Source: Escherichia coli (GTDB lineage Bacteria; Pseudomonadota; Gammaproteobacteria; Enterobacterales; Enterobacteriaceae). From it: a stretch of DNA of 64,000 nt. Positions 20,774 to 64,000 of the stretch are shown one piece after another. The stretch's first letter is position 1. Each line of letters starts with the position of its first letter. The notes beneath the pieces were generated by a model. The model saw nothing but the letters and a program-made list of their open reading frames with translations, did not search any database and was not told where the DNA came from. The stretch lies in assembly GCF_046105845.1 (NCBI RefSeq), contig NZ_CP151004.1; one strand, written 5' to 3'. Both the position numbers and the translations under genes were made by a program.

Positions 20774-20980
20774 AAAAAAACGCCTGCTCTTATTACGGAG
20801 CAGGCGTTAAAACAGGTCTGTATGACAACAAGTGGGTGCTTCACTCAACGTTGTGTCCATGGTGTCTGATGAGGCATAAGCGACATCTGTCAGTGGACGA
20901 TAAGCACCGTAAACGGCTCTGCGTCATTCCGGAGTTTATGAGGCACTAAGGCGAACATAAGAGATGGAATGAGCATCTAC
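20774..20980 (-). ncRNA. glmZ: Small regulatory RNA GlmZ (SraJ/RyiA)
   Basis: Minus-strand sequence GTAGATGCTCATTCCATCTCTTATGTTCGCC...CCTGCTCCGTAATAAGAGCAGGCGTTTTTTT ends in a canonical intrinsic terminator. glmZ is known to lie in the hemY-aslA intergenic region, antisense to both. Confidence 0.8.
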
Positions 20981-23162: not shown

Positions 23163-24397
23163 TACTTATTCACCACCATCAAATGCGCCTGCATAATGTC
23201 GCTGGCCGGACGACCGTGCGCCAGCAAATCAGCCATTGCTTTAAGATATGGCGGTAGATGGCGGAAATAACGCTGATACCCGGCACACAAATAATTCAGC
23301 CCAGGTTTGCCGCTGGCATCGAGCATAAAGCGGTGTTTCGGACAGCCTCCCCAGCACGCTTTTAACACGTTGCAACTGCGACACTGCGCCGGTAACTGCT
23401 TAAATTTATCTTCACCAAACACCTGCTGTTGCGGGGAGTCTACCATTTCTGCAATTGTCTGCTGAAGCATATTCCCCAGTCGATATTGCGGATAAACATA
23501 GTGATCGCAGGCGTAAACGTCGCCGTTGTGTTCAACAATCACCGAGCGCCCACAGGTTGGCTGATGATGGCAAACCGCTCCTGGCGCACCGACAAAATTG
23601 GCAAACGCCCATTCGATATTCATCACGAAAATCTTGCCGACGTCGCGTTTGATCCAGTGGTCGAATATCGCCACCAAAAATTCACCGAACTCCTCGGGGT
23701 GTACCGACCATTCCGTCAGTTTGCCCTGAATATCGCCGGGAGCATGTAGCTTAAGTCCAGCATGAACAGCCGTTTCATCAGCCAGGCGTTCGACCACAGG
23801 AATAAACTGGATAAACTCAACGCCTGCATCACACAGAAAATCATAGATTTGCAAAGGTTGTAACGCACAGGTGCGATTAACGCAGACCAGCACGTTATAG
23901 TCGACATGATGTTTTTGCAGGAGCATCAGGGCACGCATCACCAGCTTATGCGTTGGTCTGCCGCCTTTGGTCACGCGATATTGATTGTGGATCTCAGCCG
24001 GACCATCCAGCGATAACCCAACAAGAAAATGATTTTCTGCCAGAAATGCACACCATTCGTCATCAAGCAGCACGCCATTAGTCTGGAAGCTGTTACTTAT
24101 CTTCCTGCCAGCACCATATTTCGCCTGTAGCGCCACGGCACGGCGGTAAAAATCCAGCCCGAGTAACGTTGGTTCGCCACCCTGCCAGGTAAAAGCCACT
24201 TCGTTTTGGGTTTCGCTGGCAGCGATATAGTGACGGACATACGCTTCCAGCGTGTCATCGTCCATATGCGTGACTGGCTTTTCGCTGTAAAGGGATTGTT
24301 TTTCGAGATAAAAACAGTAGTCACAGTTCAGATTACAATCGGAACCGCTCGGTTTCGCCATCACATGAAAAGCACGCGTTGGAACCTGTTGCAGCAT
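23162..24397 (-). CDS. aslB: Anaerobic sulfatase-maturating enzyme homolog (radical SAM)
   Basis: ORF 23162..24427; ATG at 24395-24397 gives the 411-aa protein MLQQVPTRAFHVMAKPSGSDCNLNCDYCFY... with the CxxxCxxC radical-SAM motif. Confidence 0.9.
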   Translation of the reverse strand: MLQQVPTRAFHVMAKPSGSDCNLNCDYCFYLEKQSLYSEKPVTHMDDDTLEAYVRHYIAASETQNEVAFTWQGGEPTLLGLDFYRRAVALQAKYGAGRKISNSFQTNGVLLDDEWCAFLAENHFLVGLSLDGPAEIHNQYRVTKGGRPTHKLVMRALMLLQKHHVDYNVLVCVNRTCALQPLQIYDFLCDAGVEFIQFIPVVERLADETAVHAGLKLHAPGDIQGKLTEWSVHPEEFGEFLVAIFDHWIKRDVGKIFVMNIEWAFANFVGAPGAVCHHQPTCGRSVIVEHNGDVYACDHYVYPQYRLGNMLQQTIAEMVDSPQQQVFGEDKFKQLPAQCRSCNVLKACWGGCPKHRFMLDASGKPGLNYLCAGYQRYFRHLPPYLKAMADLLAHGRPASDIMQAHLMVVNK

Positions 24398-24510
24398 GGT
24401 CGCTCCTTGCCTGAAGTCATCCTTCAATAAGTTAAGGGCGAAATCATACCGTGGCGCAATGAGTTATTACGGGCGTTTATTGCGAAGGGAAGTGACGAAA
24501 TGCACAGAAA

Positions 24511-24540
24511 ACAAAAAACCCCGCCGAAGCGGGGTTCAAA
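24511..24540 (-). terminator. Intrinsic terminator of the argX-hisR-leuT-proM tRNA operon
   Basis: Minus-strand hairpin CCCCGCTTCGGCGGGG followed by TTTTTTGTTTT, immediately 3' of proM. Confidence 0.65.
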
Positions 24541-24542
24541 AT

Positions 24543-24619
24543 TGGTCGGCGAGAGAGGATTCGAACCTCCGACCCACTGGTCCCAAACCAGTTGCGCTAC
24601 CAAGCTGCGCTACTCGCCG
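24543..24619 (-). tRNA. proM: tRNA-Pro
   Basis: Reverse complement reads CGGCGAGTAGCGCAGCTTGGTAGCGCAACTGGTTTGGGACCAGTGGGTCGGAGGTTCGAATCCTCTCTCGCCGACCA (77 nt, anticodon UGG, encoded CCA). Confidence 0.95.
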
Positions 24620-24661
24620 AAATACTGCTTTTTGAATTTTTAGTTCAATTCTTTAAAGTCG

Positions 24662-24748
24662 TGGTGCGAGGGGGGGGACTTGAACCCCCACGTCCGTAAG
24701 GACACTAACACCTGAAGCTAGCGCGTCTACCAATTCCGCCACCTTCGC
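24662..24748 (-). tRNA. leuT: tRNA-Leu
   Basis: Reverse complement reads GCGAAGGTGGCGGAATTGGTAGACGCGCTAGCTTCAGGTGTTAGTGTCCTTACGGACGTGGGGGTTCAAGTCCCCCCCCTCGCACCA (87 nt, anticodon CAG, long variable arm). Confidence 0.95.
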
Positions 24749-24768
24749 ATTGTCACAACTTCTAATAA

Positions 24769-24845
24769 TGGGGTGGCTAATGGGATTCGAACCCACGACA
24801 ACTGGAATCACAATCCAGGGCTCTACCAACTGAGCTATAGCCACC
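24769..24845 (-). tRNA. hisR: tRNA-His
   Basis: Reverse complement reads GGTGGCTATAGCTCAGTTGGTAGAGCCCTGGATTGTGATTCCAGTTGTCGTGGGTTCGAATCCCATTAGCCACCCCA (anticodon GUG, extra 5' G). Confidence 0.95.
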
Positions 24846-24902
24846 ACTACAAATCTTGTTACGCGGTATTACTACCACCGCAGCTCAAGCGCCGGGACTA
24901 AA

Positions 24903-24979
<77 letters not shown>

Positions 24980-25081: not shown

Positions 25082-26467
25082 TTATTCCTCCAGTTTATGC
25101 GCTTTACCGTGGCGATTAAGCCCAAAAACTTTATAAATCGCCGTCACCGCCAGCATAAAGATGATGCCGACAAACAGCGACATACGCGTATCTTCATTAA
25201 AGTACATGCCGATCAAAACGCAAATCAGGAATGCCATTGTTACGTAGTTGGCCCACGGGAACAGGATTGAGCGGAACGGATGGCTGGCAATCGCCGCTTT
25301 ATGCGCACGACGAAAACGCAGCTGGCTTATCAATATCACAAACCATGGCACCATCCCCGGAAGCACGCTGGCACTGTAGACGTAGACAAACACACGCTGC
25401 GGATTGGGAATGACGTAGTTCAGGCATGAGCCAATTAACAGGATAGCAATAGATACTGCCACACCCGCAACCGGTACGCCGTGACGGGAAACTTTCGCCA
25501 TCGCCGCCGGTAACTGACGGTTTTTCGCCAGTGCGTAGAGCATACGTCCGCAACTGTACATGCCGCTGTTACAGCCAGAGAGCGCAGCCGTCAGCACCAC
25601 AAAGTTGATTATGCCCGCCGCTGCGGTAATGCCGATTTTGGCGAAAGTCAGTACGAACGGGCTACCGTTGCTGCCTATTTCATTCCACGGGAAGATAGTA
25701 ACGATAACGAAAATCGCGCCTACGTAGAAAATCAGGATCCTCCACAGCACTTTGCCTACTGCACTGCGCAGCGTCACCTGCGGATTCTTCGCTTCACCGG
25801 CCGTAATGCCAATCAGCTCCACGCCCTGGTAGGACGCCACCACAATACACAGAGCGGTCAGGAACCCTTTCCAGCCACCCGCAAAGAAACCGCCATGCTC
25901 TGTGAGATTGCTAAAACCAATCGACTGCCCGCCATTGCCAAAGCCAAAGAAAATCACGCCCAGGCCAATGACAATCATCACGATAATCGTGGTGACTTTG
26001 ATCATCGCGAACCAGAACTCGATTTCGCCGTACAACCTCACCGCAGCCAGATTCGCCAACGCCACCAGCGCCACCGCGATCAATGCGGGTATCCACTGCG
26101 CCATCTCCGGGAACCAGAACTGGACATAAACGCCAATGGCGGTGATTTCTGAGATCCCCACCGCCATCCACATAAACCAGTAAGACCAGGCGGTGAGATA
26201 GCCAAAAAACGGGCTCATATAACGATGCGCATAAACGGCGAACGAACCGGTAACCGGTTCGAGGAACAACATTTCGCCCATTGAACGCATGATGAAAAAG
26301 ACGAACAGCCCGGCGATGATATAGGCCAACAATACGGATGGCCCGGCCCATTTCAGGGTACTGGCGGCCCCCATAAACAGGCCGACGCCAATGGTGCCCC
26401 CCAGGGCGATGAGTTCGATATGTCGAGCTTCCAGCCCACGCTGTAGCTCTGGTTTGTTATCTGCCAT
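25082..26467 (-). CDS. yifK: APC-family amino-acid permease YifK
   Basis: 461-aa ORF, 12-TM amino-acid permease pattern; syntenic between wecG and the tRNA operon. Confidence 0.9.
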
Positions 26468-26602
26468 AAATCCTCGTGTTGTGTTTGCATGCTTTCCGGT
26501 GTTACCGGTTATCGTTATGGGTACATCGAGTGTTGCGAATGTTTTCGTAATTCAGGAGAAATGGCAAATAAAGCATTAAAAATTTGAATGCTTTGTGTAA
26601 TA

Positions 26603-26643
26603 AAAAAGCAGGAAGGCGACGAAGTGACCACTTCGTCGCTTTA
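26603..26643 (-). terminator. Putative terminator at the end of the wec operon (downstream of wecG)
   Basis: Inverted repeat GCGACGAAGTG / CACTTCGTCGC with a T-run on the minus strand a few bases downstream. Confidence 0.4.
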
Positions 26644-26657
26644 CAGAGAGAGGAAAA

Positions 26658-27398
26658 TCAGAGGTTGCCGGTGTAATGCCAGCGTAAATAACGCAGCAAA
26701 CGAAGCTGACGCTTAATGCGGCTCGGCTGCGAAAGCAGGCGGTAGAGCCACTCCAGCCCCAGCGTTTGCCAGATTTTCGGTGCACGTTTTACGTGACCGG
26801 TGAAAACATCATAAGTCCCGCCAACGCCCATATACAGCGCATCTGGATGCACCAGACGGCAGTCGCGCATGAAGATCTCCTGCTTTGGCGATCCCATCGC
26901 AACGGTGACGATTTGCGCTCCGCTGGCATGAATGCGTTCAAACAGCATCTGACGCTGCTCGGGTTTAAAATAACCATCCTGACTGCCAACGATATTCACA
27001 TTCCACTGGTTGCGTAGTTTAGCTTCAGTTTGCGCCAGCACTTCAGGTTTACCGCCCACAAGAAATACCGGTGTCCCTTCTTTGCCTGCGCGCGCCATCA
27101 GCTCTTCCCAGAGATCGGCCCCTGCAACGCGGGAAACCTGCGCCTGCGGGTACTTTTTACGTACTGAACGTACAACGCTGATGCCATCCGCATATTTAAA
27201 TTCGGCAGCGTTAATTAACTCCCGGACCTCGGCGTTATCTTCAATGGTCAGCATTTTTTCGGCATTAATGGCAACCAGCGTTCCCTGCTTAAGCTGCCCG
27301 TCAGCGAACAGATAATCGAGGGCGTGCTGCATATCACGCCAACCAATCAACTGTAAGCCACGCAGCGTATAGGTCGGTGCCGTGGTGTTGTTATTCAT
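26658..27398 (-). CDS. wecG: UDP-N-acetyl-D-mannosaminuronic acid transferase (ECA synthesis)
   Basis: 246-aa ORF; last gene of the wec cluster. Confidence 0.9.
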
Positions 27399-27400
27399 TG

Positions 27401-28753
27401 TTATCCTTCAACCTGCGTCCGGAGCGATGATTTTGTTCGTTTATGAATGAGTCCGGCGCTTTCAAAAAGCCAGTACAACAGTTTTGCGATCATCAGACAT
27501 GCGCCGAAGACCACGATAAAAAAGACTACGCGTGAGACAAACGAATCCAGCCCTTCACGCGCCAGCACGATCATATTGAAGATCGCCCCAAAGCAGAAAC
27601 TATGCAATATCGCAGCCTTATAGCGATTAGTCTCGCGGTTGCCCAGCTCATACAGCCAGTCGAACCATTTGATGATCAGGCCAACCACAATCGCCCCGAG
27701 CGGGATGAACAACGCGCCGCCCATCACCACCAGTGAGCCTATAAGCGTAGGCGAGATCGCCAGCCCGGAGTGGTTATTCAGCACTTCCCAGGTAAAGTAG
27801 TTGGCGGAGTTCAGTACCATACTCGGGCGACCCGGCCACAGCCAGGAAGGGATAAAGACATAGAAATCGCGGACAATGGGAGCCAGACCCTGGAAGTCGA
27901 TGTTGTCGTAGTTCTGCAACAGCAATGCCAGATTCTCCCACGGCGAAAAGGTATCGCGGGTGAGATAGAGAAACGTATAGAACGCTTCATCGCCGCTCAC
28001 ATTCATTCCATAACGTTTTAGCGCCAGCCAGAACATGCCCACAATCCCCAGCACGCCCGCCGCCGCCAGCATCCACAACGAAATCCAGCCGCGAATAATG
28101 CCAATAAACAGGAAGATAGCGAATGCGATGATGATATTGGCGCGAGTGCCGCCGACAATCATATAAGTCAGCAAGCCAAAGGCGACCGTGCTGACGAGGA
28201 AAAACAGCCACGCTTTGCTGTCCTGGCGCAGAAAGTAGACCACCAGCATCGCCGGGATGAAAAAGTAAAAGAAGCGTTTTAACGCCACGCCGGAGACTTC
28301 ACTGGAGAAGATCTGACTGTAGGAGTTAAGCCGGAACAGCAAAAAGCCGTTGTGCATGAAGAAGATGCCGACGCTTACCAGCGCGATGCCCATCAGGATC
28401 ACCCACGTAAGATTGGTCTCCACGCGGTTCATGGTAAACAGCGGACGGCGCGGTACATCAGCAACGCGTTTGCGTAGGCGGGTTTTGTAGGTGACATAGT
28501 AAACCGCGTAGAAACAGCCCGCAGAAAGCAACGCCTGCAACAAGATTTCTGGCGGCGCGACACCAACATCAAAGCGAAATACCAGCACGCTGGTCAGCGG
28601 GAAGCCGAAGAAAAAGGTGAGCAAAAACAGCAATGAAAAGAAGACATTGAAGTTAAAACGCACACGGCGAAACTCAAACCAGGTCAGCGTGGCAATAAAC
28701 AGCGTGCAGAGCAGCCAGACAACAAACAGGCCACTGAATTGCAGCAGACTCAT
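27401..28753 (-). CDS. wzyE: ECA polymerase
   Basis: 450-aa polytopic membrane protein; overlaps wecF by 4 nt. Confidence 0.9.
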
Positions 28754-29829
28754 GCAACCTCCCCGGCGGCAATAGCCAACGCCCGCTGCCAGCCTTGCAG
28801 ATAGTTCGGGCTAAAGAAGGCAATGGTGTTTTTATCCACCGACGCCAACTGGCGCTGCGCTTCACGCACAATATCCTCGTTGAGATCGTCGGTAGTAAAC
28901 AGCACCGGTAAATGCTGTTCCGTCATATCCTGCCAGAACGGATTTTCCCGGTTAAGCACACAAGGAATGCCCGCCTGAATCAGTAAGCACAGCGTACCAA
29001 TGCCCTGCTGGCGGGCAAAAATAAAGTAACCAAGATCGCACTGACGAAGTAACGTCAGATAGGCGTCAAATTCCAGTTTTTCGCTCAAAACTTGCAGATT
29101 TTCTTCGCTGAATAACTCCAGCCCCGCCTGACGAACGTCCTCGATGTACGCTTCGTTATTAGGCGGATATCCCATCGGCACCACCACTTTTACCGTATCG
29201 CCAAATTGCTGATGAACGGCGCGCAAGGCAGCAATATGCTCATTGCTGCGGTCGCCGGAGTTCCCCACCAGAATGGTCATTTTCCCTTCACGTTGCCGAT
29301 CGTTCGCCATCGTATTGAGAGAAGGATCCATCCGCGTCGGGAAGTACAGCAGTTCGCCCCGCACCTTTGGGTGCGTTTTGGCAAAAAAGCTCAAATCACC
29401 GCGGGTGGCAAATACACAGCCGACTCGCTTTTGCGCCAGGCGACGTAGTGGGTAAAAAAGCTTATATCTCAAGCCACTGGAAAGCTCGTACAGGTCTGCC
29501 CCCCAGATATGCCAGTAAAACTGGCTGGGCTTAATGCCACCACTCAGCAGAGCCAGCCACAGTGTGGGATTGAACTGACCGTGGAAGAAAAAACGCTGCT
29601 GACGGTTAGCTTTTGCTTTCGCGATGACCGCTTCCGCCAGCGATTTTTTCCCAGGGAAAAATTGCACAGAAAGCGTCGGACAGCTATCACTTAAGCCGTC
29701 GTCCTTGCCAACAACCATAAACTCGCGCGCGTGCTCGCTCGTCGCGGCCAGCGCGTCATTGAAAAACCGCAAAACGGTTCGGTTATGGTGAGGGATATCC
29801 GATCCCAGTACGTGAATCAGTACAGTCAT
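28750..29829 (-). CDS. wecF: TDP-N-acetylfucosamine:lipid II N-acetylfucosaminyltransferase
   Basis: 359-aa ORF; overlaps wzxE by 4 nt. Confidence 0.9.
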
Positions 29830-31076
29830 GCCCGCCTACGCCAGAGTAAAAACACGCCACAACAAAGAGAAAAATAGACGATATAGGTTGCCATATAGGC
29901 CTGCGCCGCGCCCAGTGCACCATGCGCAGGGATTAGCCAGTGGGCAAATACCATCAATAAAGTGAACTGGCTGACTTCCGCCAGAATATAAAACCGCAGT
30001 GACGCTTTGGCGATCACCAGATAACCAAAGACATAAGCGCCCACTTTTAACACATCACCCACTAACTGCCAGGCAAAGAGATCGCGCATAGCGGTAAATT
30101 TATTCGACAACAGCAGCCAGATAGCAAAATCACGCAGCAACCAGACGGTAAAACTCGCCGCCGCCACTGCCGGTAAGACGAATTTCAGCGATTTAACCAC
30201 TTCCCGGGTGATATCGCGCTTTTCCGTTAGCCGCGACAACGTGGGCAGCAAATATACGCTGAACGATGCCGTAATAAATTGCAGGTAGGCATCGGAAATA
30301 CTGCTCACCCCTTGCCAGATCCCCACCTCATCCCAGCTATACTGCGCCGCCAGCAGTTTACGCATCATGATGTAAGCAACAGGCAAGGTCACCGACGTAA
30401 TCAACGCCATGAGCGTAAATTTGCTCAACTGCCCTGCCAGACCGTTATCCCAGCTGGGTTTCAGATAGCTTAACGGGATGACACCACGTTTGATCAACAT
30501 GATGGCGGCAGGAATTACCACCAGCGCGGGAATCAGCGCCAGACCCAGCAACGCCCCTTTATAACCGCCCAAACGGTAACTGACGTAGTACGCGAGAACG
30601 CCAATCAGGCTGCCAACAATCAGAGATAACGCATTACCTGCGGCATCGCGAAAGCCTTTCATCAACGCCAGTAACAGGTTGCCCCAGGCGATCCCCATTT
30701 GCACCAACGCCACTAAACGTACCAGTCCCTGATAGTCGGTATTACCAAACAATCCCTGGCTGATTGGCGCTGCTGCCAGCACAAAAACCAGCGCCATCAG
30801 CGTAGAGAAGCCAAGTACCATCGCTGATGAAGTGCCGACCACGCGGCGCAGCTGCTGCGGATTATCATGGTACTGAGCAACGTATTTGGTTACGCCATTA
30901 AAGATGCCCGCCCCGGCAAGCACGCCGAGCACGGTAATCAACTGGCGGAAATTTGCCGCCAGCCCAAGCCCCGCCGGACCAAATGACACCGCCAGCAACT
31001 TACCGACCAGTAACCCGGCACCAATCTTGACCAGTGTACTGGCCGCCGTCCACAAGGACGCTTTTGCCAACGACAT
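29826..31076 (-). CDS. wzxE: ECA lipid III flippase
   Basis: 416-aa polytopic membrane protein. Confidence 0.9.
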
Positions 31077-31077
31077 A

Positions 31078-32208
31078 TCAGGAGAAGTAGTTCAACAAAG
31101 TCGCAATTACCGTACGCTGATTGACGGGCGACAGGTTGTAGAACAGCGGCAGGCGCAGCAGGCGCTCGCTCTCTTTGGTGGTGTAGCGATCTTCACCGTG
31201 GAACTCACCAAAGCGTTCCCCCGCAGGGCAACCGTGCAGCGGAATGTAATGGAACACCGCCATGATTTCCGCTTCTTTCAGAAAGTTAATCAACGCGCTC
31301 CGGTCATCAATATCCCGCAGTTTAATGTAGAACATATGCGCGTTCTGCACGCAGCCATCGGGAATCGACGGCAGCTCGATACGCCCGGCTTTCGCCAGAG
31401 GTGCTAACGCATCGTAGTAGTTTTGCCACAGCGCCAGACGTTGCTGATTGATACGATCCGCTGCTTCCAGTTGCGCCCACAGGTACGCAGCTTGCAGATC
31501 GGACATCAAATAGCTGGAGCCAATATCGCGCCAGGTATATTTATCGACCTGACCACGGAAGAACTGGCTGCGGTTTGTGCCTTTTTCACGGATGATCTCG
31601 GCTCGTTCGATCAACGCTTTATCGTTAATCAGCGTCGCGCCGCCTTCACCGCCCGCCGTGTAGTTTTTGGTTTCATGGAAGCTAAAGCAGCCAATATGAC
31701 CAATGGTTCCCAGTGCACGCCCTTTGTAAGTGGACATCACGCCCTGAGCGGCATCTTCTACCACAAACAGATTATGCTTTTTCGCCAACGCCATAATGGT
31801 GTCCATTTCGCAGGCCACGCCCGCGTAATGCACCGGCACGATAACGCGCGTTTTGTCGGTGATCGCCGCTTCAATCAACGTTTCGTCGATGTTCATGGTG
31901 TCCGGGCGAACATCCACAAAGACGATTTTTGCGCCACGCAGCACAAAGGCATTGGCGGTGGAGACAAAGGTGTAGCTCGGCATGATCACTTCATCGCCAG
32001 GCTGGATATCGAGCAGCAGCGCCGCCATCTCCAGCGAAGCGGTGCAGGATGGAGTCAGTAACACTTTGGCGCTGCCAAAACGTTGCTCCAGCCACTGCTG
32101 GCAGCGACGGGTAAAACCGCCATCGCCGCACAGTTTGCCGCTCCCCATTGCCGACTGCATATAGTCGAGTTCGGTTCCCACCACCGGCGGTGCGTTAAAT
32201 GGAATCAT
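31078..32208 (-). CDS. wecE: dTDP-4-amino-4,6-dideoxygalactose transaminase
   Basis: 376-aa ORF of the DegT/DnrJ/EryC1 aminotransferase type. Confidence 0.9.
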   Translation of the reverse strand: MIPFNAPPVVGTELDYMQSAMGSGKLCGDGGFTRRCQQWLEQRFGSAKVLLTPSCTASLEMAALLLDIQPGDEVIMPSYTFVSTANAFVLRGAKIVFVDVRPDTMNIDETLIEAAITDKTRVIVPVHYAGVACEMDTIMALAKKHNLFVVEDAAQGVMSTYKGRALGTIGHIGCFSFHETKNYTAGGEGGATLINDKALIERAEIIREKGTNRSQFFRGQVDKYTWRDIGSSYLMSDLQAAYLWAQLEAADRINQQRLALWQNYYDALAPLAKAGRIELPSIPDGCVQNAHMFYIKLRDIDDRSALINFLKEAEIMAVFHYIPLHGCPAGERFGEFHGEDRYTTKESERLLRLPLFYNLSPVNQRTVIATLLNYFS

Positions 32209-32212
32209 GTGA

Positions 32213-32887
32213 TCACCTGTATAACCAGTACGCGGTGCTTTCTACATTCGCACCACTTTGTATGTATCGTTTAAGCGCGGCGGTGTTGCCCATTTGGGTC
32301 GCCACCCGCAAAGTTGTTTTACCGCGAGCATACGCCCAGTTTAGCGCCGTTTGCATCAGCTCAGCACCTACACCGCGTCCAGCCAGCAGGCCAATTCGCG
32401 CATCTGTCGCATTGAGTTCCCGTAAAGAGACATAGCCGCGAATATCGCCGGACGCCGCACGTAAAATCAGACATTGATGATCAAAGGTGCCGCGCACGGC
32501 ATTTTCAATCCACTGTGCATAAAAGCGACCGCTGGCGTCAGGCGCATACCATGGCGCACGAAAACGGCTTTGCGCAAATGCGGCGCTGGCTAACTGACGT
32601 AATGCGGGAATATCGGTCTCTTGTGCCACTACTGCACCGCTATCACTGACATTGTTCACGGGTAGCGCCAAATCAACTTCACCTTCTACCAGGGAGAATC
32701 CCAGCTGTTGCAGGGCATCCAGTTCACCCGTATTTGATGCCGCAATTTTGGCCTGTACCCGTGACCACGGCGCTAAGGCGTCTGACGTCAGGAGCGGTGC
32801 TTCAGGCGTGATGCGCACGATGGCGCTGTTAACACCAAAGAAGGCGTTTTCCCAGGTTAGTGGCTCAATACTGGCGCGGACGGGCAC
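32213..32887 (-). CDS. wecD: dTDP-fucosamine acetyltransferase (GNAT)
   Basis: 224-aa ORF; overlaps the rffH stop. Confidence 0.85.
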
Positions 32888-33746
32888 GGAGTAACTCCAG
32901 CAGATATTGGCCGTAGCCAGTTTTCGCCAGCGAGCTGGCGGCGCGCTTCACGCCTTCGTCATCAAGCCAGCCGTTACGCCAGGCGATCTCTTCCAGGCAG
33001 GCAATCTTAAAGCCCTGGCGTTTTTCTACCGTCTGTACAAAGGTACTGGCTTCAATCAGGCTGTCGTGAGTACCGGTGTCCAGCCAGGCAAATCCGCGCC
33101 CGAGCAGTTCAACGGTCAGGTTACCCGCCTCGAGGTACATCTGGTTGATGGAGGTGATCTCCAGTTCACCACGCTCCGACGGCTTCACCAGCTTTGCGTA
33201 CTCCACAACTTTACTGTCGTAGAAATAAAGCCCGGTCACCGCCCAGTTTGACTTCGGCTGTTTTGGCTTTTCTTCCAGCGAGATAGCGCGGAAATTGTCG
33301 TCAAACTCCACGACGCCAAAGCGTTCCGGATCCATCACCTGATAGCCAAATACCGTCGCGCCTTGCGTGCGCGCCGCAACATGACGCAACTTCGGACTGA
33401 AGCCCTGTCCGAAGAAGATGTTATCGCCCAGCACCAGACAAGAAGGTTCACCGTTGAGGAAGGTTTCACCGATGATAAAGGCCTGCGCCAGACCGTCCGG
33501 ACTGGGCTGTTCGGCATATTCCAGCTGGATACCGAACTCACTACCATCGCCCAGCAGGCGCTGGAAATAACCTTTATCTTCCGGCGTAGTGATGATGAGA
33601 ATTTCGCGGATACCGGCCAGCATCAGCACCGACAGCGGATAGTAAATCATTGGCTTATCGTAAATCGGCAACAGTTGCTTCGATACGCCGCGCGTAATCG
33701 GATGCAATCGGGTGCCGGAACCGCCCGCCAGGATAATACCTTTCAT
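32865..33746 (-). CDS. rffH: Glucose-1-phosphate thymidylyltransferase 2
   Basis: 293-aa ORF with the N-terminal [18 protein letters not shown] nucleotidyltransferase motif. Confidence 0.9.
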
Positions 33747-33764
33747 GTTTGCCTCCGCTGAAAA

Positions 33765-34832
33765 TTAGCCTTTCAGACCTAAACGCTCGCCCTGATAGCT
33801 GCCGTCCTGCACCTGCTTCCACCAGCTTTCATTAGCCAGATACCACTGCACCGTTTTACGCATTCCACTTTCAAAGGTTTCCTGCGGCAGCCAGCCAAGT
33901 TCATGGGCAATTTTCGAAGCATCAATGGCATAACGCAGATCATGCCCCGGACGGTCAGCGACAAAGGTGATCAGGTCACGATAGTGCGCCACGCCGTGCG
34001 GCTTGTTCGGAGCCAGTTCTTCCAGCAGCTCGCAAATGGTTTCCACAACATCGAGATTCTTACGCTCGTTGTGACCACCAATATTATAGGTTTCACCGAC
34101 TTTCCCGGTGGTCGCTACGCAATACAGCGCACGGGCGTGATCTTCAACATACAGCCAGTCACGGATTTGCTGCCCGTTGCCATATACCGGCAGCGGTTTA
34201 CCCGCCAGCGCGTTGAGGATCATCAGCGGGATCAGTTTTTCCGGAAAGTGGTAAGGGCCGTAGTTATTCGAGCAGTTGGTGATAAGCGTCGGCAGACCAT
34301 AGGTCCGCAGCCAGGCGCGTACCAGATGGTCGCTGCTGGCTTTTGAAGCGGAATAAGGGCTGCTCGGCGCATACGGCGTGGTTTCGGTGAAGAAATCATC
34401 CGTCGAGTGCAGGTCACCATATACTTCGTCGGTGGAAATATGATGAAAACGGAACGCTGATTTTTTATCTTCCGTCAGCGCATTCCAGTAAGTCCGCGCC
34501 GCTTCAAGCAATGTATAAGTCCCGACAATGTTGGTTTCAATAAACGCTGCCGGGCCGTCAATAGAACGGTCAACATGGCTTTCGGCTGCCAGATGCATGA
34601 CACAGTCTGGCTGATGCTCAGTGAATACGCGCGCCAGTTCTGCCCGATCGCAGATATCAACTTTCTCAAAGGCAAAGCGCTCGCTTTGCGCGACCGGTGC
34701 CAGCGACATCAGGTTTCCGGCGTAGGTCAGCTTATCGACCACTACCACCGCATCGCTCGTTTCGTTGATGATATAACGCACCAGCGCCGAGCCAATAAAC
34801 CCGGCACCACCTGTTATCAGAATCTTTCTCAT
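33765..34832 (-). CDS. rffG: dTDP-glucose 4,6-dehydratase 2
   Basis: 355-aa [22 protein letters not shown]... (Rossmann GxxGxxG, SDR family). Confidence 0.9.
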
Positions 34833-36094
34833 CAGCGCCAGACTCCTTTGGCATCGACGACATACTGCTGATGGACGTTGTCGCCATTGATAACTTTGAA
34901 CTGACTATGATCGACCAGCATCACCAGCACATCTGCCGTTGCCAGCGCCTCGTCAAGCTGCGCCAGAGTACAAAGCCCGGTCAGTTTCTTCGGCAACTGG
35001 TGGATGTTAGGCTCAACAACCAGCGTTTCGCCGCTGTGCCACTGGGCGATCAGTTCAGCGATTTCCATCGCCGGGCTTTCGCGCAGGTCATCAATATTCG
35101 GTTTAAACGCCAGACCAAAGCAGGCGATTTTCAGTTCACTGGCACGTTTATCGGTAGCCGCCAGACAATCAGCCACCGCCGCTTTCACCTGATCGATAAC
35201 CCAGAACGGTTTGTGATCGTTCACTTCGCGCGCGGTACGGATAAGCCGCGCCTGCTGCGGGTTCTGTGCCACAATAAACCACGGATCAACAGCGATGCAG
35301 TGACCGCCCACGCCAGGACCAGGCTGAAGAATATTAACGCGAGGGTGACGATTCGCCAGGCGAATCAGTTCCCAGACGTTAATCCCCTGATCGGCACAAA
35401 TCAGCGACAATTCATTAGCAAAAGCGATATTCACATCGCGGAAGCTGTTTTCGGTGAGCTTACACATTTCCGCCGTCCGCGAGTTAGTGACGACACACTC
35501 ACCTTCGAGGAAAATCTTGTACAGTTCGCTGGCGCGGGCCGAACAAACCGGCGTCATACCACCAATCACGCGATCGTTTTTAATCAGCTCGACCATAACC
35601 TGGCCCGGTAACACGCGTTCCGGGCAGTAAGCAATGTTGACGTCCGCCAACTCGCCCACCTGCTGTGGGAAAGTGAGATCTGGACGCATCTCTGCTAACC
35701 ATTCTGCCATCTTCTCGGTTGACCCCACCGGCGAGGTGGATTCAAGGATCACCAGCGCGCCTTTTTTCAGCACTGGCGCAATGGAGCGAGCAGCCGATTC
35801 AACGTAGGTCATATCTGGCTCATGATCGCCTTTAAACGGCGTGGGTACAGCAATCAGCCAGGCATCCGCTTCAACTGGCGTCGTGCTCGCTCGTAAAAAA
35901 CCGCCTTCTACGGCAGTTTTTACTACGCTCGCCAAATCAGGTTCGACGATATGGATTTCGCCACGATTGATGGTATCAACCGCATGTTGGTTGATATCGA
36001 CACCAATCACCTGTTTTTGCCGAGAGGCAAACGCAGCTGCCGTTGGCAGCCCGATATAACCCAGTCCGATAACAGAAATGGTCGCAAAACTCAT
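34832..36094 (-). CDS. wecC: UDP-N-acetyl-D-mannosamine dehydrogenase
   Basis: 420-aa [25 protein letters not shown]... Confidence 0.9.
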
Positions 36095-37221
36095 AGTGAT
36101 ATCCGATTATTTTTTAACGCTTCCAGAATGCGAGAGCATGCCTGACCATCACCATACGGGTTATGGGCGCGGCTCATAGTTTGATATTCGTTTTCGTCTT
36201 TTAAAAGACGCGTCACTTCCTCGACAATTCGCTGCTTATCCGTGCCTACCAGACGCACCGTACCCGCCGTCACCGCTTCCGGACGCTCAGTGGTATCGCG
36301 CATCACCAGCACCGGTTTCCCCAGCGAAGGCGCTTCTTCCTGAATGCCGCCTGAGTCGGTCAAAATCAGCCAGGCGTGGTTCATCAGCCAGACAAACGGT
36401 AAATACTCCTGGGGATCGATCAGAATGACATTTTTCACATGCCCCAGAATGCGATTGACCGGCTCTCTAACGTTCGGGTTGAGATGCACCGGATAGACAA
36501 TCTGGATGTCCTGGTGCGTGGTGGCGATGTCTGCCAGCGCATGGCAGATTTCTTCAAAGCCACGACCGAAGCTTTCACGCCTGTGACCGGTCACCAGAAT
36601 CATCTTTTTATCGGGGTCGATAAACGGGTAATTTGCCGCAAGTTCTGAACGCAGCGTGTCGCTGCTCATCACCTGGTCACGCACCCATAACAGTGCATCA
36701 ATAACTGTATTACCGGTAATGAAGATTCGGCTGTCAGCAACATTTTCACGCAGCAAGTTTTGCCGGGAAGTTTCGGTTGGAGAGAAGTGATACATCGCCA
36801 GATGCCCGGTCAATGTACGGTTAGCCTCTTCCGGCCACGGCGAATAGAGATCGCCCGTGCGCAGACCAGCCTCAACGTGACCAACAGGAATACGCTGATA
36901 AAACGCCGCCAGGCTGGTTGCCAGCGTCGTCGTAGTATCGCCGTGAACCAGCACGACGTCTGGTTTGAACTCGGCAAGAATTGGTTTTAGCCCTTCCAGA
37001 ATCCGACAGGTTATCTCTGTCAGGCCCTGTCCTGGCTGCATTATGTTGAGATCGTAGTCAGGTACAATGGAAAAGAGTTTCAGCACCTGATCGAGCATCT
37101 CCCGATGCTGCGCAGTGACGCAAACTTTAGCCTCAAAAAAAGGATCTTTTGCCAACGCATGCACCAACGGCGCCATCTTGATGGCTTCCGGGCGCGTACC
37201 AAATACAGTCAGTACTTTCAC
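36091..37221 (-). CDS. wecB: UDP-N-acetylglucosamine 2-epimerase
   Basis: ORF 36091..37263; GTG at 37219-37221 gives the 376-aa protein (M)[19 protein letters not shown]... Confidence 0.9.
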
Positions 37222-37276
37222 ATCGATTCTCTTCGAATAAGCGGCGAGCGCCTTTGCGCTCACCGCAGCAGTGTTG

Positions 37277-38326
37277 CTATTTCGAGCAACGGCGGGTTAA
37301 TGCGACACCAGCCCCGATCAGCCCCCCGACAATGCCCCACATAATCATCAGGAAGGCACGACGTGGGCTATCGCGTTTTACCGGTTCTTCCGGCGTACGC
37401 AAATAGCGATAGGTCTGAAAACGCGGATCCAGGGTTGGACCAACATTCAGGGTGTTTAACATGGCCCGATTCTGATCATAGTCGAGATCAAAGGCCGGAC
37501 CGACGGCCTGTAAATTTTCCAGTCGAGCCTGGAGCATTGGACGCCCAAGCAGGAACATTTCTGAATCAGGCAATTCCTCGGCAGGCACATCTGTCGCACT
37601 GCGCGAAATATTATGCTGCTCTGCAATTTTCAGCGCCTGTTCAATACTGTTCATCCGGCGGTCGTAGATGGCTTTCGCCACCTCTTCCTGACGCTTCACC
37701 TGAGCTTTCATCTGGATGGTGCGCGCCGCCCATGCACCTTTCAGCTCATCATTCAGATGGCTGGCTGCACGCTGGCTGGCAAAAGCAACATACTGACGTA
37801 ACAGGTTATTAGCGTCAGGCGCGGTTTCGGCAATCAGCTTCACGCTGTCATTGACCGCGCGGGTAAAGTCTCCGGGGATAAACTGGATGTTATTAATCAT
37901 TTCATCCAGCAACGCCGCATCGGCTTTGCTGTTGCCCACCATCCGCTGCTTGTAATAGTCGGTTTGCAGCCAGAACTCTCTGCGGGTATCCCACGAGGCC
38001 AGTTGCATAACAAACTCTTTATAGGCTTCGTCCATGACCGATGGTTGGTCGGCAGAAGCCATGTTTGAACGGACATCCAGGTTACGCAAAAATTGCTGCT
38101 GTGAGTAATATCCCCCCAGCATATTCACCGTTGGACGATCGGTAATCGCCGTCGAGCTCCACTCCTGACGAGCAAAAAACGTATACGCCAGCGCGATTAA
38201 CGCAAACGCCAGCCCCATGCCAATAATCCATAGCTTCCCAGCCCACAAGGTACGAAACAACCCACGAATATCCAGTTCATTTTCAGCGTCTTCGGCCGGT
38301 TTCCCAGGCATTGGTTGTGTCATCAC
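37277..38326 (-). CDS. wzzE: ECA polysaccharide chain-length modulation protein
   Basis: 349-aa ORF with N- and C-terminal TM segments flanking a periplasmic coiled-coil domain. Confidence 0.9.
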
Positions 38327-38334
38327 ATCCTCAT

Positions 38335-39438
38335 TTATTTGGTTAAATTGGGGCTGCCACCACGATTTCTACGCAGTCTGCGTTTTACGCGCTTAATAAA
38401 GCGAGCAACTTTCCAGGCACGCTTAATGCAATATCCATAGAGGAAGAATGCTAGCAAAAAGAGCACCAGCATGACCCACTCCGGGACAAAATGAGAATAT
38501 TCTGCCAGCACCCCAATGGAGGCGAGCAGAGCTGCGGCAAGGGTAATCAGCACAAACGCCTGGCGGGAAGTAAACCCGGCACGCATGATCAAATGGTGAA
38601 TATGCTGGCGATCAGGAGAGAACGGACTCATGCCTTTACGCAGGCGACGGTACATAATCGCCACCATATCCATTAGCGGAATGGCGATTATCCACAAAGC
38701 GGTAACCGGGCTGATGGGATGGGTTTTGCCCTGGGTCGTTTCGAGCAGGATCCAGATAACGGTAAAACCAATCAGCGTACTGCCCGCATCACCCATAAAG
38801 ACTTTGTAGCGGCGACCCAGGATACCAAGGTTAAGCATGATGTATGGCAGGATGGCGGCGATCATCGCAAAACACCAGATTGCAAGGCTGGTTTGCCCGT
38901 CGAACCACAAAATCATACCGATTGCTGCAAACGAGACGCAGGACAACCCGCCCAGCAAGCCATCAATGCCATCAACCATGTTGAACGCATTAATGGCCGC
39001 CCAGACGGCAAATAGCGTCAGGAAGTAGCCAAACGGTCCGAGCACCATCTCCCAGGAGCCAAAGATATAACCCAGGCTACTGAGATAAAGTTTGCCGAAC
39101 ACCATCATAACAATGCCAACAGCGGCCTGTATGGTGGCACGGATTTTTACGCTGATATCAAAACGGTCATCCAGCGCGCCAATGAAAACAAGCACACCGG
39201 CACAAGCGAGATAGAGAGATGCATGCGGAATATAGTAATCGACAATTCCGAACGTGAAGCAAATCCCTGCGTAAACCGAAATCCCCCCAACGAGAGGTAT
39301 CAATCCCTGGTGACGTTTGCGGAAGTTAGGTTTATCCACTAAACCGACTTTTTTTGCCACCTTACGGGCAAAAAACAGAAACAGTGTCGTGAATAAAAAA
39401 ATACTGATGAGATCAGTACTCACTGTCAGTAAATTCAC
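38335..39438 (-). CDS. wecA: Undecaprenyl-phosphate GlcNAc-1-phosphate transferase
   Basis: 367-aa polytopic membrane protein MNLLTVSTDLISIFLFTTLFLFFARKVAKKVGLVDKPNFRKRH... Confidence 0.9.
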   Translation of the reverse strand: MNLLTVSTDLISIFLFTTLFLFFARKVAKKVGLVDKPNFRKRHQGLIPLVGGISVYAGICFTFGIVDYYIPHASLYLACAGVLVFIGALDDRFDISVKIRATIQAAVGIVMMVFGKLYLSSLGYIFGSWEMVLGPFGYFLTLFAVWAAINAFNMVDGIDGLLGGLSCVSFAAIGMILWFDGQTSLAIWCFAMIAAILPYIMLNLGILGRRYKVFMGDAGSTLIGFTVIWILLETTQGKTHPISPVTALWIIAIPLMDMVAIMYRRLRKGMSPFSPDRQHIHHLIMRAGFTSRQAFVLITLAAALLASIGVLAEYSHFVPEWVMLVLFLLAFFLYGYCIKRAWKVARFIKRVKRRLRRNRGGSPNLTK

Positions 39439-39626
39439 AATGCATGCTCTCAGAGAAAATTATTAGCAGAAGTATAACCACGAAGACCTTTATTCAGAAG
39501 GGAAAGTCCGTTCCGAACCCACCAGTCCTGTGCAAAAATTAACCATTTGATATGCAAATTGCATAACACACCAGCAAAATCCAGGAATTTTCCTAACATT
39601 GCCAGCGCGGCATTAAGATTACAGAT

Positions 39627-39665
39627 ATAAAAGCAAAACGCCACGTAAACACGTGGCGTTTTTGG
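39627..39665 (-). terminator. Intrinsic terminator just downstream of rho
   Basis: Minus strand reads AAAAACGCCACGTG-TTTA-CGTGGCGTTTTGCTTTT about 15 bp after the rho stop. Confidence 0.55.
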
Positions 39666-39677
39666 CATAAGACAAAT

Positions 39678-40937
39678 TTATGAGCGTTTCATCATTTCGA
39701 AGAAATCGTCATTGGTCTTGGTCATTGCCAGTTTATTAATGAGGAATTCCATTGCATCGATTTCGCCCATCGGGTGAATGATTTTGCGCAGGATCCACAT
39801 TTTCTGCAGTTCTTCCTGAGTAGTGAGCAGCTCTTCTTTACGGGTACCGGAACGGTTGTAGTCGATTGCCGGGAAGACGCGTTTTTCAGCGATCTTACGA
39901 GAGAGGTGCAGTTCCATGTTGCCTGTACCTTTAAACTCTTCGTAGATAACTTCGTCCATCTTGGAACCGGTATCGATAAGCGCGGTAGCGATGATGGTCA
40001 GGCTGCCGCCCTCTTCCACGTTACGCGCCGCACCGAAGAAGCGTTTCGGACGATGCAGGGCGTTGGCATCCACACCACCGGTCAGCACTTTACCTGACGC
40101 CGGAACAACGGTGTTGTAAGCGCGCGCCAGACGAGTGATGGAGTCGAGCAGGATGATAACGTCTTTCTTGTGCTCAACCAGGCGTTTCGCCTTCTCGATC
40201 ACCATTTCCGCAACCTGAACGTGGCGAGATGCGGGTTCGTCAAAGGTAGAAGCAACAACTTCACCTTTTACCAGACGCTGCATCTCGGTTACTTCTTCCG
40301 GACGTTCGTCGATCAGCAGAACCATCAGCACACAATCCGGGTGGTTGTAAGCAATGCTCTGAGCAATGTTCTGCAGCAGCATGGTTTTACCGGCTTTCGG
40401 CGGTGCCACAATCAGACCACGCTGACCACGACCGATAGGTGATGCCAGATCCAGTACGCGAGCGGTTAAATCTTCAGTAGAACCGTTACCACGTTCCATA
40501 CGCAGACGAGAGTTTGCGTGCAGCGGGGTTAAGTTCTCAAAGAGGATTTTGTTGCGGGCGTTTTCAGGTTTGTCGAAGTTAACTTCGTTAACTTTCAGCA
40601 GCGCAAAATAGCGTTCACCTTCTTTCGGCGGGCGAATCTTACCAGAGATGGTATCACCAGTGCGGAGGTTGAAACGGCGGATTTGGCTAGGGGAAACGTA
40701 GATGTCATCAGGACCGGCGAGGTAGGAGCTGTCTGCGGAACGGAGGAAACCAAATCCATCCTGCAATATCTCCAGTACACCATCACCAAAGATATCTTCG
40801 CCACTCTTTGCGTGCTGCTTCAGGATGGCAAAAATAATGTCCTGCTTACGCATACGAGCCAGGTTTTCCAGCCCCATATTTTCGCCGAGAGTGATCAGCT
40901 CAGAAACCGGCGTATTCTTTAATTCGGTAAGATTCAT
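39678..40937 (-). CDS. rho: Transcription termination factor Rho
   Basis: ORF 39678..41009; internal ATG 24 codons in gives the 419-aa protein [44 protein letters not shown]... Confidence 0.95.
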
Positions 40938-41263: not shown

Positions 41264-41593
41264 TTACGCCAGGTTAGCGTCGAGGAACTCTTTCAACTGA
41301 CCTTTAGACAGTGCGCCCACTTTGGTTGCCGCCACTTCACCGTTTTTGAACAGCAGCAGAGTCGGGATACCACGGATACCATATTTCGGCGCAGTGCCAG
41401 GGTTTTGATCGATGTTCAGTTTTGCAACGGTCAGTTTGCCCTGATATTCGTCAGCGATTTCATCCAGAATCGGGGCGATCATTTTGCACGGACCGCACCA
41501 CTCTGCCCAGAAATCGACGAGGATCGCCCCGTCCGCTTTGAGTACATCCGTGTCAAAACTGTCGTCAGTCAGGTGAATAATTTTATCGCTCAT
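41264..41593 (-). CDS. trxA: Thioredoxin 1
   Basis: ORF 41264..41698 begins at a TTG; ATG at 41591-41593 gives the 109-aa protein [41 protein letters not shown]... (WCGPC active site). Confidence 0.95.
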
Positions 41594-41723
41594 ATATAAC
41601 TCCACAGGAATAAGCCTGGCGTGTTGGTTTCGTTGTTGGTGTAACATTAACCAACTAAAGGTTGACTTTATTTCACCGGATACGCTTTCGTAAAGCAATA
41701 GTAAGCTGATATTCTACCACACT

Positions 41724-59437: not shown

Positions 59438-59513
59438 GGATGATTTCTGGCAGGGGCGGAGAGACTCGAACTCCCAACACCCGGTTTTGGAGACCGGTGC
59501 TCTACCAATTGAA
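59438..59513 (-). tRNA. trpT: tRNA-Trp
   Basis: Reverse complement reads AGGGGCGTAGTTCAATTGGTAGAGCACCGGTCTCCAAAACCGGGTGTTGGGAGTTCGAGTCTCTCCGCCCCTGCCA (anticodon CCA). Confidence 0.95.
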
Positions 59514-59531
59514 CTACGCCCCTAATTAGGG

Positions 59532-59608
59532 TGGCGGAACGGACGGGACTCGAACCCGCGACCCCCTGCGTGACAGGCAGGTATTCTAACCGACTGAACT
59601 ACCGCTCC
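59532..59608 (-). tRNA. aspT: tRNA-Asp
   Basis: Reverse complement reads GGAGCGGTAGTTCAGTCGGTTAGAATACCTGCCTGTCACGCAGGGGGTCGCGGGTTCGAGTCCCGTCCGTTCCGCCA (anticodon GUC). Confidence 0.95.
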
Positions 59609-59660
59609 ACCGAATTCTTTTACAACCACCGGTTTTATGACCGGCTTACTGCTTAATTTG

Positions 59661-59780
59661 ATGCCTGGCAGTTCCCTACTCTCGCATGGGGAGACCCCAC
59701 ACTACCATCGGCGCTACGGCGTTTCACTTCTGAGTTCGGCATGGGGTCAGGTGGGACCACCGCGCTACGGCCGCCAGGCA
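59661..59780 (-). rRNA. rrfC: 5S ribosomal RNA
   Basis: 120 nt; reverse complement begins TGCCTGGCGGCCGTAGCGCGGTGGTCCCACCTGACCCCATGCCGAACTCAG and ends ...AGGGAACTGCCAGGCAT. Confidence 0.95.
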
Positions 59781-59871
59781 AATTCTGTTTATCAGACCGC
59801 TTCTGCGTTCTGATTTAATCTGTATCAGGCTGAAAATCTTCTCTCATCCGCCAAAACATCTTCGGCGTTGT

Positions 59872-62776
<2,905 letters not shown>

Positions 62777-62969
62777 TCACAACCCGAAGATGTTTCTTTC
62801 GACTCATCATCGTGTTGCGAAAATTTGAGAGACTCACGAACAACTTTCGTTGTTCAGTGTTTCAATTTTCAGCTTGATCCAGATTTTTAAAGAGCAAATA
62901 TCTCAAACATCACCCGAAGATGAGTTTTGAGATATTAAGGCAGGTGACTTTCACTCACAAACCAGCAAG

Positions 62970-63045
62970 TGGCGTCCCCTAGGGGATTCGAACCCCTGTT
63001 ACCGCCGTGAAAGGGCGGTGTCCTGGGCCTCTAGACGAAGGGGAC
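62970..63045 (-). tRNA. gltU: tRNA-Glu (16S-23S spacer tRNA)
   Basis: Reverse complement reads GTCCCCTTCGTCTAGAGGCCCAGGACACCGCCCTTTCACGGCGGTAACAGGGGTTCGAATCCCCTAGGGGACGCCA (anticodon UUC). Confidence 0.95.
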
Positions 63046-63130
63046 GTATCAGTCTGCTTCGCAAGACGCCTTGCTTTTCACTTTCTATCAGACAATCTGT
63101 GTGAGCACTGCAAAGTACGCTTCTTTAAGG

Positions 63131-64000
<870 letters not shown>

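Follow-up and report, generated by a model that had tools for sequence, protein, structure and literature searches.

An apparently intact, canonical enterobacterial common antigen operon in an Escherichia coli chromosome and a conserved hairpin in its wzzE-wecB spacer

Is a gene cluster that looks like the well-known operon for enterobacterial common antigen (ECA) really that operon, complete and unaltered, and what does its tight packing tell about its expression? These questions arise for the segment 26658-39438 of a 64,000-nt stretch of an Escherichia coli chromosome (contig NZ_CP151004.1, assembly GCF_046105845.1), referred to here as the window. A first-pass annotation made from the letters alone had described the segment as a complete 12-gene ECA cluster, wecA through wecG, with tight translational coupling and no disruption, insertion or cargo gene. 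Judging from sequence comparisons, the segment is almost certainly the intact, canonical ECA operon of the E. coli chromosome, encoded on the minus strand; the coupling has to be stated more narrowly, and one intergenic spacer of the operon contains a hairpin whose pairing is conserved between genera.

Identity and integrity of the cluster

The list of open reading frames (ORFs) contains twelve long co-oriented ORFs in this segment, all on the minus strand and with outer ends at exactly 26658..39438. The boundaries given by the first-pass annotation are thus exact, and its twelve co-oriented genes are all found in the ORF list and in the RefSeq and K-12 annotation; only the strand had been left unstated. 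Each gene occurs once, in the order wecA-wzzE-wecB-wecC-rffG-rffH-wecD-wecE-wzxE-wecF-wzyE-wecG, which is also the order in K-12. The RefSeq annotation of E. coli MEI003, whose corresponding region is 98.9% identical, and that of K-12 both show these 12 genes between rho and thrP in an identical order. Gene names differ among annotations, with PGAP labelling rffH as rfbA in MEI003 and the pairs rffC/wecD, rffA/wecE, rffT/wecF and wecG/rffM being used for others.

A gene-by-gene alignment to the wec (rfe-rff) operon of K-12 MG1655 (b3784-b3794 plus b4481; NC_000913.3, 3967916-3980696) revealed the same genes, order, orientation, lengths, starts and stops. All 11 junction distances, the 12,781-nt span and the flanking genes are identical, and protein identity amounts to 98-100%, with 0-7 amino acid differences per protein. 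Translation starts at GTG in wecA, wecB and wecD and at ATG in the remaining nine genes. The flanks are canonical as well and syntenic with K-12 and MEI003: rho-rhoL-trxA-rhlB lies on the upstream side, and thrP (yifK), the four tRNA genes argX-hisR-leuT-proM and aslB lie downstream. Each of the 12 products scores above the curated NCBIfam cut-off of its specific ECA family across the full protein length, with E values from 1e-107 to 1e-262 (Table 1).

These family assignments also bear on the idea that the locus is another Wzx/Wzy-dependent polysaccharide cluster, for O-antigen or capsule, misread as ECA. Its Wzx/Wzy/Wzz architecture is indeed generic, and rffG and rffH are paralogous to rfbB and rfbA, as reflected in the RefSeq name 'RfbA' for rffH. 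However, the ECA-specific equivalog models for WzxE, WzyE, WzzE, WecF, WecG and WecD were all passed, whereas the O-antigen WzzB and FepE models score below cut-off. The site between rho and thrP is not the galF-gnd site of O-antigen loci, the leader lacks the core of the operon polarity suppressor (ops)/JUMPStart element, and the locus is invariant across E. coli, which O-antigen loci are not. A misread O-antigen or capsule cluster is thus already refuted, its residual probability being vanishingly small.

No frameshift, premature stop, insertion sequence element or selected extra ORF was found in 26658-39438. The ungapped base-by-base comparison with K-12 keeps its register from 43354 to ~24900 (>18 kb), at 95.6-99.8% identity per 500-nt bin, and this unbroken register means that there is no insertion, deletion or cargo in or beside the cluster. 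Together with gene lengths equal to those of K-12 and zero internal stops, this bears out the earlier description of an uninterrupted locus. Only 91 nt within the span are non-coding, which leaves no room for another gene. There is one copy each of the glycosyltransferases WecA, WecG and WecF, and the closer comparison revealed neither an extra nor a missing glycosyltransferase. The longest non-annotated ORF (34871-35611, plus strand, 246 amino acids, ATG start) runs antisense to wecC and is open in K-12 and MEI003 too; its 15 nucleotide differences from K-12 are all non-synonymous for this ORF, and one of them changes WecC, so that we rejected it as a hidden gene and regard it as an unselected shadow ORF.

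The pathway steps are established knowledge of the WecA-WecG, Rff and Wzx/Wzy/Wzz families, and the polymer is composed of N-acetylglucosamine (GlcNAc), N-acetylmannosaminuronic acid (ManNAcA) and 4-acetamido-4,6-dideoxygalactose (Fuc4NAc), as GlcNAc-ManNAcA-Fuc4NAc. WecA, as UDP-GlcNAc:undecaprenyl-phosphate GlcNAc-1-phosphate transferase, would load GlcNAc-1-phosphate onto undecaprenyl phosphate to give Lipid I. UDP-ManNAcA, supplied by WecB and WecC, would be added by WecG to form Lipid II, and dTDP-Fuc4NAc, provided by RffH, RffG, WecE and WecD, would be added by WecF to form Lipid III. The resulting trisaccharide-lipid is predicted to be flipped over the inner membrane by WzxE and polymerised by WzyE, with the chain length governed by WzzE. 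One point weighs against calling this set complete: genes outside the cluster are needed for ECA as well, for example those for WecH (O-acetylation; PMC7439462) and ElyC (regulation; PMC12212991), and completeness therefore applies to the operon and not to the whole pathway.

Table 1 Positions of the ECA genes and of further features in the window. Differences are given relative to K-12; bit scores refer to the named family model and its cut-off.
Feature	Position	Strand	Remarks
wecA (rfe)	38335..39438	minus	367 aa (amino acids), GTG start, 100% aa identity to K-12; TIGR02380 ECA_wecA 575.5 bits, cut-off 326
wzzE, ECA chain-length co-polymerase	37277..38323	minus	348 aa, 100% identity to K-12; NF008645 693.7 bits, cut-off 332
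wecB, UDP-GlcNAc 2-epimerase	36091..37221	minus	376 aa, GTG start, K189T and A348T; TIGR00236 620.6 bits, cut-off 210
wecC, UDP-ManNAc dehydrogenase	34832..36094	minus	420 aa, Q149L; NF008286 857.8 bits, cut-off 459
rffG, dTDP-glucose 4,6-dehydratase	33765..34832	minus	355 aa, 3 aa differences; NF007582 829.9 bits, cut-off 698
rffH, glucose-1-phosphate thymidylyltransferase	32865..33746	minus	293 aa, 2 aa differences; TIGR01207 532.1 bits, cut-off 360.65
wecD (rffC), dTDP-fucosamine acetyltransferase	32213..32887	minus	224 aa, GTG start, 5 aa differences; NF008212 357.9 bits, cut-off 219
wecE (rffA), dTDP-4-keto-6-deoxyglucose transaminase	31078..32208	minus	376 aa, 1 aa difference; TIGR02379 736.8 bits, cut-off 434.85
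wzxE, Lipid III flippase	29826..31076	minus	416 aa, E173K; NF011679 808.4 bits, cut-off 325
wecF (rffT), TDP-Fuc4NAc:Lipid II Fuc4NAc transferase	28750..29829	minus	359 aa, 7 aa differences; NF002752 856.6 bits, cut-off 754
wzyE, ECA polymerase	27401..28753	minus	450 aa, P375T; NF002820 868.5 bits, cut-off 510
wecG (rffM), UDP-ManNAcA:Lipid I transferase	26658..27398	minus	246 aa, 2 aa differences; NF002980 443.6 bits, cut-off 323
11-bp hairpin GCGGTGAGCGC-AAAG-GCGCTCGCCGC	37241..37266	minus	inside the 55-nt wzzE-wecB spacer 37222-37276
rho-wecA intergenic region, 239 nt	39439..39677	minus	rho intrinsic terminator 39635-39662, then wecA promoter/leader
terminator-like 10-bp hairpin	26599..26639 (hairpin 26616-26639)	minus	18 nt past the wecG stop; U6 run begins 8 nt beyond the stem
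tRNA-Arg(ccg), His, Leu(cag), Pro(tgg)	24543-24979	minus	tRNA genes downstream of the cluster
GlmZ small RNA	20774-20980	minus	Rfam gathering-score match
trxA 5' untranslated region (5'UTR) thermometer	41564-41663	minus	Rfam gathering-score match
'Rev39 5'UTR' element	55940-56229	minus	Rfam gathering-score match
rRNA operon: partial 16S, tRNA-Glu, StyR-44, 23S, 5S, tRNA-Asp, tRNA-Trp	59448-64000	minus	Rfam gathering-score matches

Divergence and prevalence in E. coli

The cluster differs from that of K-12 at ~1.7% of its nucleotides, and nearly all of these differences are synonymous (~190 synonymous, 26 non-synonymous). At the protein level, the differences add up to 25 (0, 0, 2, 1, 3, 2, 5, 1, 1, 7, 1 and 2 in operon order). 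With a synonymous divergence (pS) of 0.063 and a non-synonymous divergence (pN) of 0.0028, pN/pS is 0.044, which points to strong purifying selection on the cluster genes. A megablast search with positions 26000-40000 matched 5,425 of 5,426 complete E. coli genomes, at a coverage of at least 80% in 5,424, and the matches nearly always formed one colinear piece. One of the 5,426 complete genomes was matched by no query.

The best match among these genomes, MEI003 (NZ_CP071263.1), covers 100% of the query in one colinear piece at 98.9% identity, and the divergence from it is mosaic, with pS values of 0.004 for wecE, 0.072 for wecC and 0.086 for rffH. For each third of the window, the best identity to any complete E. 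coli genome is 98.5-98.9% with perfect synteny, and for single genes it reaches 99.0-99.2%. The exact WecF protein occurs in 191 blocks of the public collection, and differences from draft assemblies encoding identical WecF cluster in blocks. The exact sequences of the nine other proteins that differ from K-12 are likewise public and carry E. coli or Shigella ECA protein names. This block mosaic indicates ordinary E. coli core-genome recombination in a lineage that appears sparse among complete genomes, and not a functional change. We also considered whether the low best identity might point to an altered locus or one from outside E. coli; the single-gene ceilings, the block mosaic and the public proteins named as E. 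coli exclude this.

Such divergence could also be taken to mean that the cluster only looks canonical and is decaying or altered, by a pseudogene, a truncation or a swapped or extra glycosyltransferase, so that the cell would lack ECA or produce a modified form. Decay of this kind does occur in some host-restricted lineages. The lineage is uncommon, its DNA being at most 98.9-99.0% identical to any of the 5,426 genomes, and several substitutions are absent from both K-12 and MEI003 (WecC Q149L, RffG A114T/R310H, RffH Q186L, WecD P35S, WzxE E173K and WecF A52T/E231D). However, there are zero indels and zero stops, all lengths equal those in K-12, the low pN/pS is accompanied by full-length family scores far over the cut-offs, each variant protein is found in exactly this form in further public assemblies of E. 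coli or Shigella, and the differences form the clustered mosaic typical of core-genome recombination. At the sequence level, a decaying or altered cluster is therefore already refuted, and we regard it as highly improbable. Gene order, span, family scores, flanks, pN/pS and the occurrence in 5,424/5,426 genomes instead agree with the first-pass view of a canonical cluster and not a novel polysaccharide locus. As a clean negative, the segment belongs to the housekeeping part of the core genome that serves envelope biogenesis, and it contains neither an island nor cargo nor a variant glycosyltransferase.

Within the cluster, rffH shows the highest synonymous divergence (pS 0.134 vs K-12). Megablast matches to rffH were obtained in 5,308/5,426 genomes vs 5,425 for wecC, which suggests a far more divergent rffH allele in ~2% of E. 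coli genomes. Exchange with rfbA/rmlA is possibly the source of divergent rffH, but gene conversion by rfbA is not established as the cause of the high pS.

Gene junctions and the wzzE-wecB spacer

Based on the K-12/RefSeq starts, the distances from one gene to the next along the operon are +11, +55, -4, -1, +18, -23, +4, +1, -4, -4 and +2 nt; 8/11 thus lie within -23 to +4 nt and the remaining three are +11, +18 and +55. The first-pass annotation had described the genes as mostly joined by overlaps of 1-4 nt or gaps below 20 nt. This holds for nine of the eleven junctions, but fails at wzzE-wecB, which is separated by 55 nt, and at rffH-wecD, which overlaps by 23 nt. The mechanical ORF list gives wecB (390 aa) and wzzE (349 aa) as longer ORFs with GTG starts, which make the gap between the two look like 13 nt, and this may be the source of the earlier impression of the spacing. 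The annotated wecB start is the GTG at 37221, which is kept across 75 species.

Escherichia albertii, Citrobacter sedlakii and C. portucalensis carry all 12 genes in an unchanged order; the 55-nt wzzE-wecB spacer recurs in these species, as do the distances at seven junctions (-4, -1, -23, +4, +1, -4, -4). They differ in the rffG-rffH and wzyE-wecG spacers, which vary in length, and in the sizes of WzyE (448-451 aa) and WecD (225 aa). The predicted duplex energies with the anti-Shine-Dalgarno (anti-SD) sequence divide the genes downstream of these junctions. Against a background mean of -2.2 kcal/mol, the values are +0.4 for wzxE, -3.2 for wecF, -3.3 for wecC and -3.8 kcal/mol for wecE, all four at junctions of 4 nt or less, whereas wzzE, rffG, rffH, wecD, wzyE and wecG reach strong values of -5.5 to -11.6 kcal/mol.

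The combination of tight junctions with a weak or absent Shine-Dalgarno (SD) sequence at wecC, wecE, wzxE and wecF led us to propose re-initiation there: ribosomes ending one gene would re-initiate on the next where there is little SD complementarity. This suggests termination-reinitiation coupling at some junctions. The 'tight translational coupling' of the first-pass annotation had been read from spacing and, as a statement on the entire cluster, goes beyond the evidence. Several observations weigh against such a blanket reading. wzzE and wecB are separated by a 55-nt spacer that contains a stable and conserved hairpin, the rffG-rffH distance is +18 nt here and ranges from +6 to +110 nt in relatives, and the six genes with good SD sequences could initiate independently. 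No experimental report of coupling in the wec operon was found in the literature searched, where the sole phrase match was an unrelated reporter method.

The same observations, namely strong SD duplexes in front of 6/11 downstream genes, two junctions whose length differs between genera and a searched literature free of experimental evidence for coupling, would fit a view in which close packing reflects genome economy and every gene uses a ribosome-binding site of its own, without functional coupling. However, wzxE has no SD complementarity and starts 1 nt past the wecE stop, wecC, wecF and wecE are at SD background with junctions of -4, -4 and +4 nt, and Escherichia and Citrobacter share the exact seven-junction geometry although their sequences have diverged. 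We consider packing without any coupling to be rather unlikely, and coupling restricted to a subset of junctions to be the reading that these sequences suggest.

The long wzzE-wecB spacer contains an 11-bp, GC-rich hairpin (Table 1), with a folding energy of -29.6 kcal/mol (z = -4.18) for its 71-nt context. Its sequence is identical in K-12 and hence not particular to this genome. Homologous loci were found by an exact 20-mer that runs from 13 nt upstream of the wecB GTG through the seventh coding nt, using one genome per species. This 20-mer matched in 75 species from ~20 genera of Enterobacteriaceae, and its invariance refers to the matches recovered in this way. When 70 distinct Enterobacteriaceae sequences were aligned, the helix was paired in 87% of cells, and both partners had changed in 10/11 pairs, such as G-C in Escherichia vs A-U in Enterobacter. 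None of 500 shuffles reached the observed values (0/500), and slid controls gave 26-59% pairing; these statistics carry the caveats that the loci were chosen by the exact 20-mer and that relatedness inflates shuffle statistics. Despite these caveats, the helix sequence varies between genera while pairing is kept, and RNAalifold independently predicts seven helix pairs, all with compensatory changes.

We rejected the hairpin as an intrinsic terminator: it has no direct U-tract (UUAUUCG follows in Escherichia and CUAAUCG in most genera), and the terminator scan made no call. A permissive Rfam 15 scan of 26400-39750 (E <= 1) found no family for the hairpin or the cluster, the sole match being a trypanosomatid snoRNA at 23.7 bits vs a gathering score of 55, which we attribute to chance. 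No description of a terminator or hairpin at wzzE-wecB was found in the searched literature, with one of the queries badly specified. We tentatively raise the possibility that the spacer carries an undescribed cis-acting RNA element, consisting of the hairpin and the 20-nt block with the weak-SD GTG start of wecB. The hairpin would most likely act as an intercistronic stability or processing element or as a determinant of wecB initiation.

Stem-loops between cistrons that give the parts of an operon's mRNA different stabilities are known, for example, as the repetitive extragenic palindromic (REP) hairpins in malEFG. By analogy, the wzzE-wecB hairpin resembles these in being a stable GC-rich structure just past an upstream stop, without a U-tract, in what would be a polycistronic unit. 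Unlike REP sequences, it occurs as a single copy at this locus only, and genera differ in its sequence but keep the pairing. If the proposal holds true, the element could set the ratio of wecA-wzzE to wecB-onward expression by way of differential mRNA stability, of processing or of regulated initiation. This ratio would matter because WecB by itself also supplies the NGR glycan, which is the receptor of phage N4. A functional element would add a post-transcriptional layer to the regulation of ECA and WecB, for which PdeL, NsrR and ElyC are the only regulators currently listed (PMC12212991).

Transcription signals and neighbouring features

Transcription of the cluster would start in the promoter region that separates rho from wecA. 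This intergenic region has the length found in K-12, with 5 substitutions (98% identical), and is identical to that of MEI003. For K-12, four transcription start sites and binding sites of PdeL and NsrR have been described in it (PMC8669472; PMC12212991), and a genomic SELEX (gSELEX) study placed an RpoN site between rfe and wzzE (PMC8743547). The terminator scan detected the rho terminator as a hairpin with a U-tract. Internal promoters did not stand out, as 6 consensus-like sigma-70 sites were found vs 10.9 +/- 3.5 expected from shuffles, without enrichment.

Control of the cluster by RfaH through ops was rejected, because a search for the ops core (GGCGGTAG) on the coding strand of the leader 39439-39677 gave no match. 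The sole GGCGGTAG match inside the cluster lies within wecG on the opposite strand. Across the window this 8-mer occurs five times (11944, 12109, 17209, 23250 and 26738) vs 1.4 expected, and 1/100 shuffles reaches five. None of the five lies in the wec leader, and the excess is probably due to chance.

Scanning the cluster for terminators gave 30 terminator-like matches vs 16.9 expected, nearly all of them weak 5-6 bp stems in coding sequence, and only the rho terminator is convincing among them. A hairpin past wecG folds at -17 kcal/mol (z = -2.73) and was not called by the consensus terminator scan because its U-run is displaced. We infer that it might serve as the operon terminator, although it is atypical and terminator-like at best.

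Outside the cluster, the Rfam matches (Table 1) are all expected for this region of E. coli. The ungapped register relative to K-12 is lost at ~24350-24900, just downstream of thrP and in or beside argX-hisR-leuT-proM (24543-24979, minus strand), which implies a small indel vs K-12. In this tRNA array, hisR is annotated with 76 nt in MEI003 and with 77 nt in K-12.

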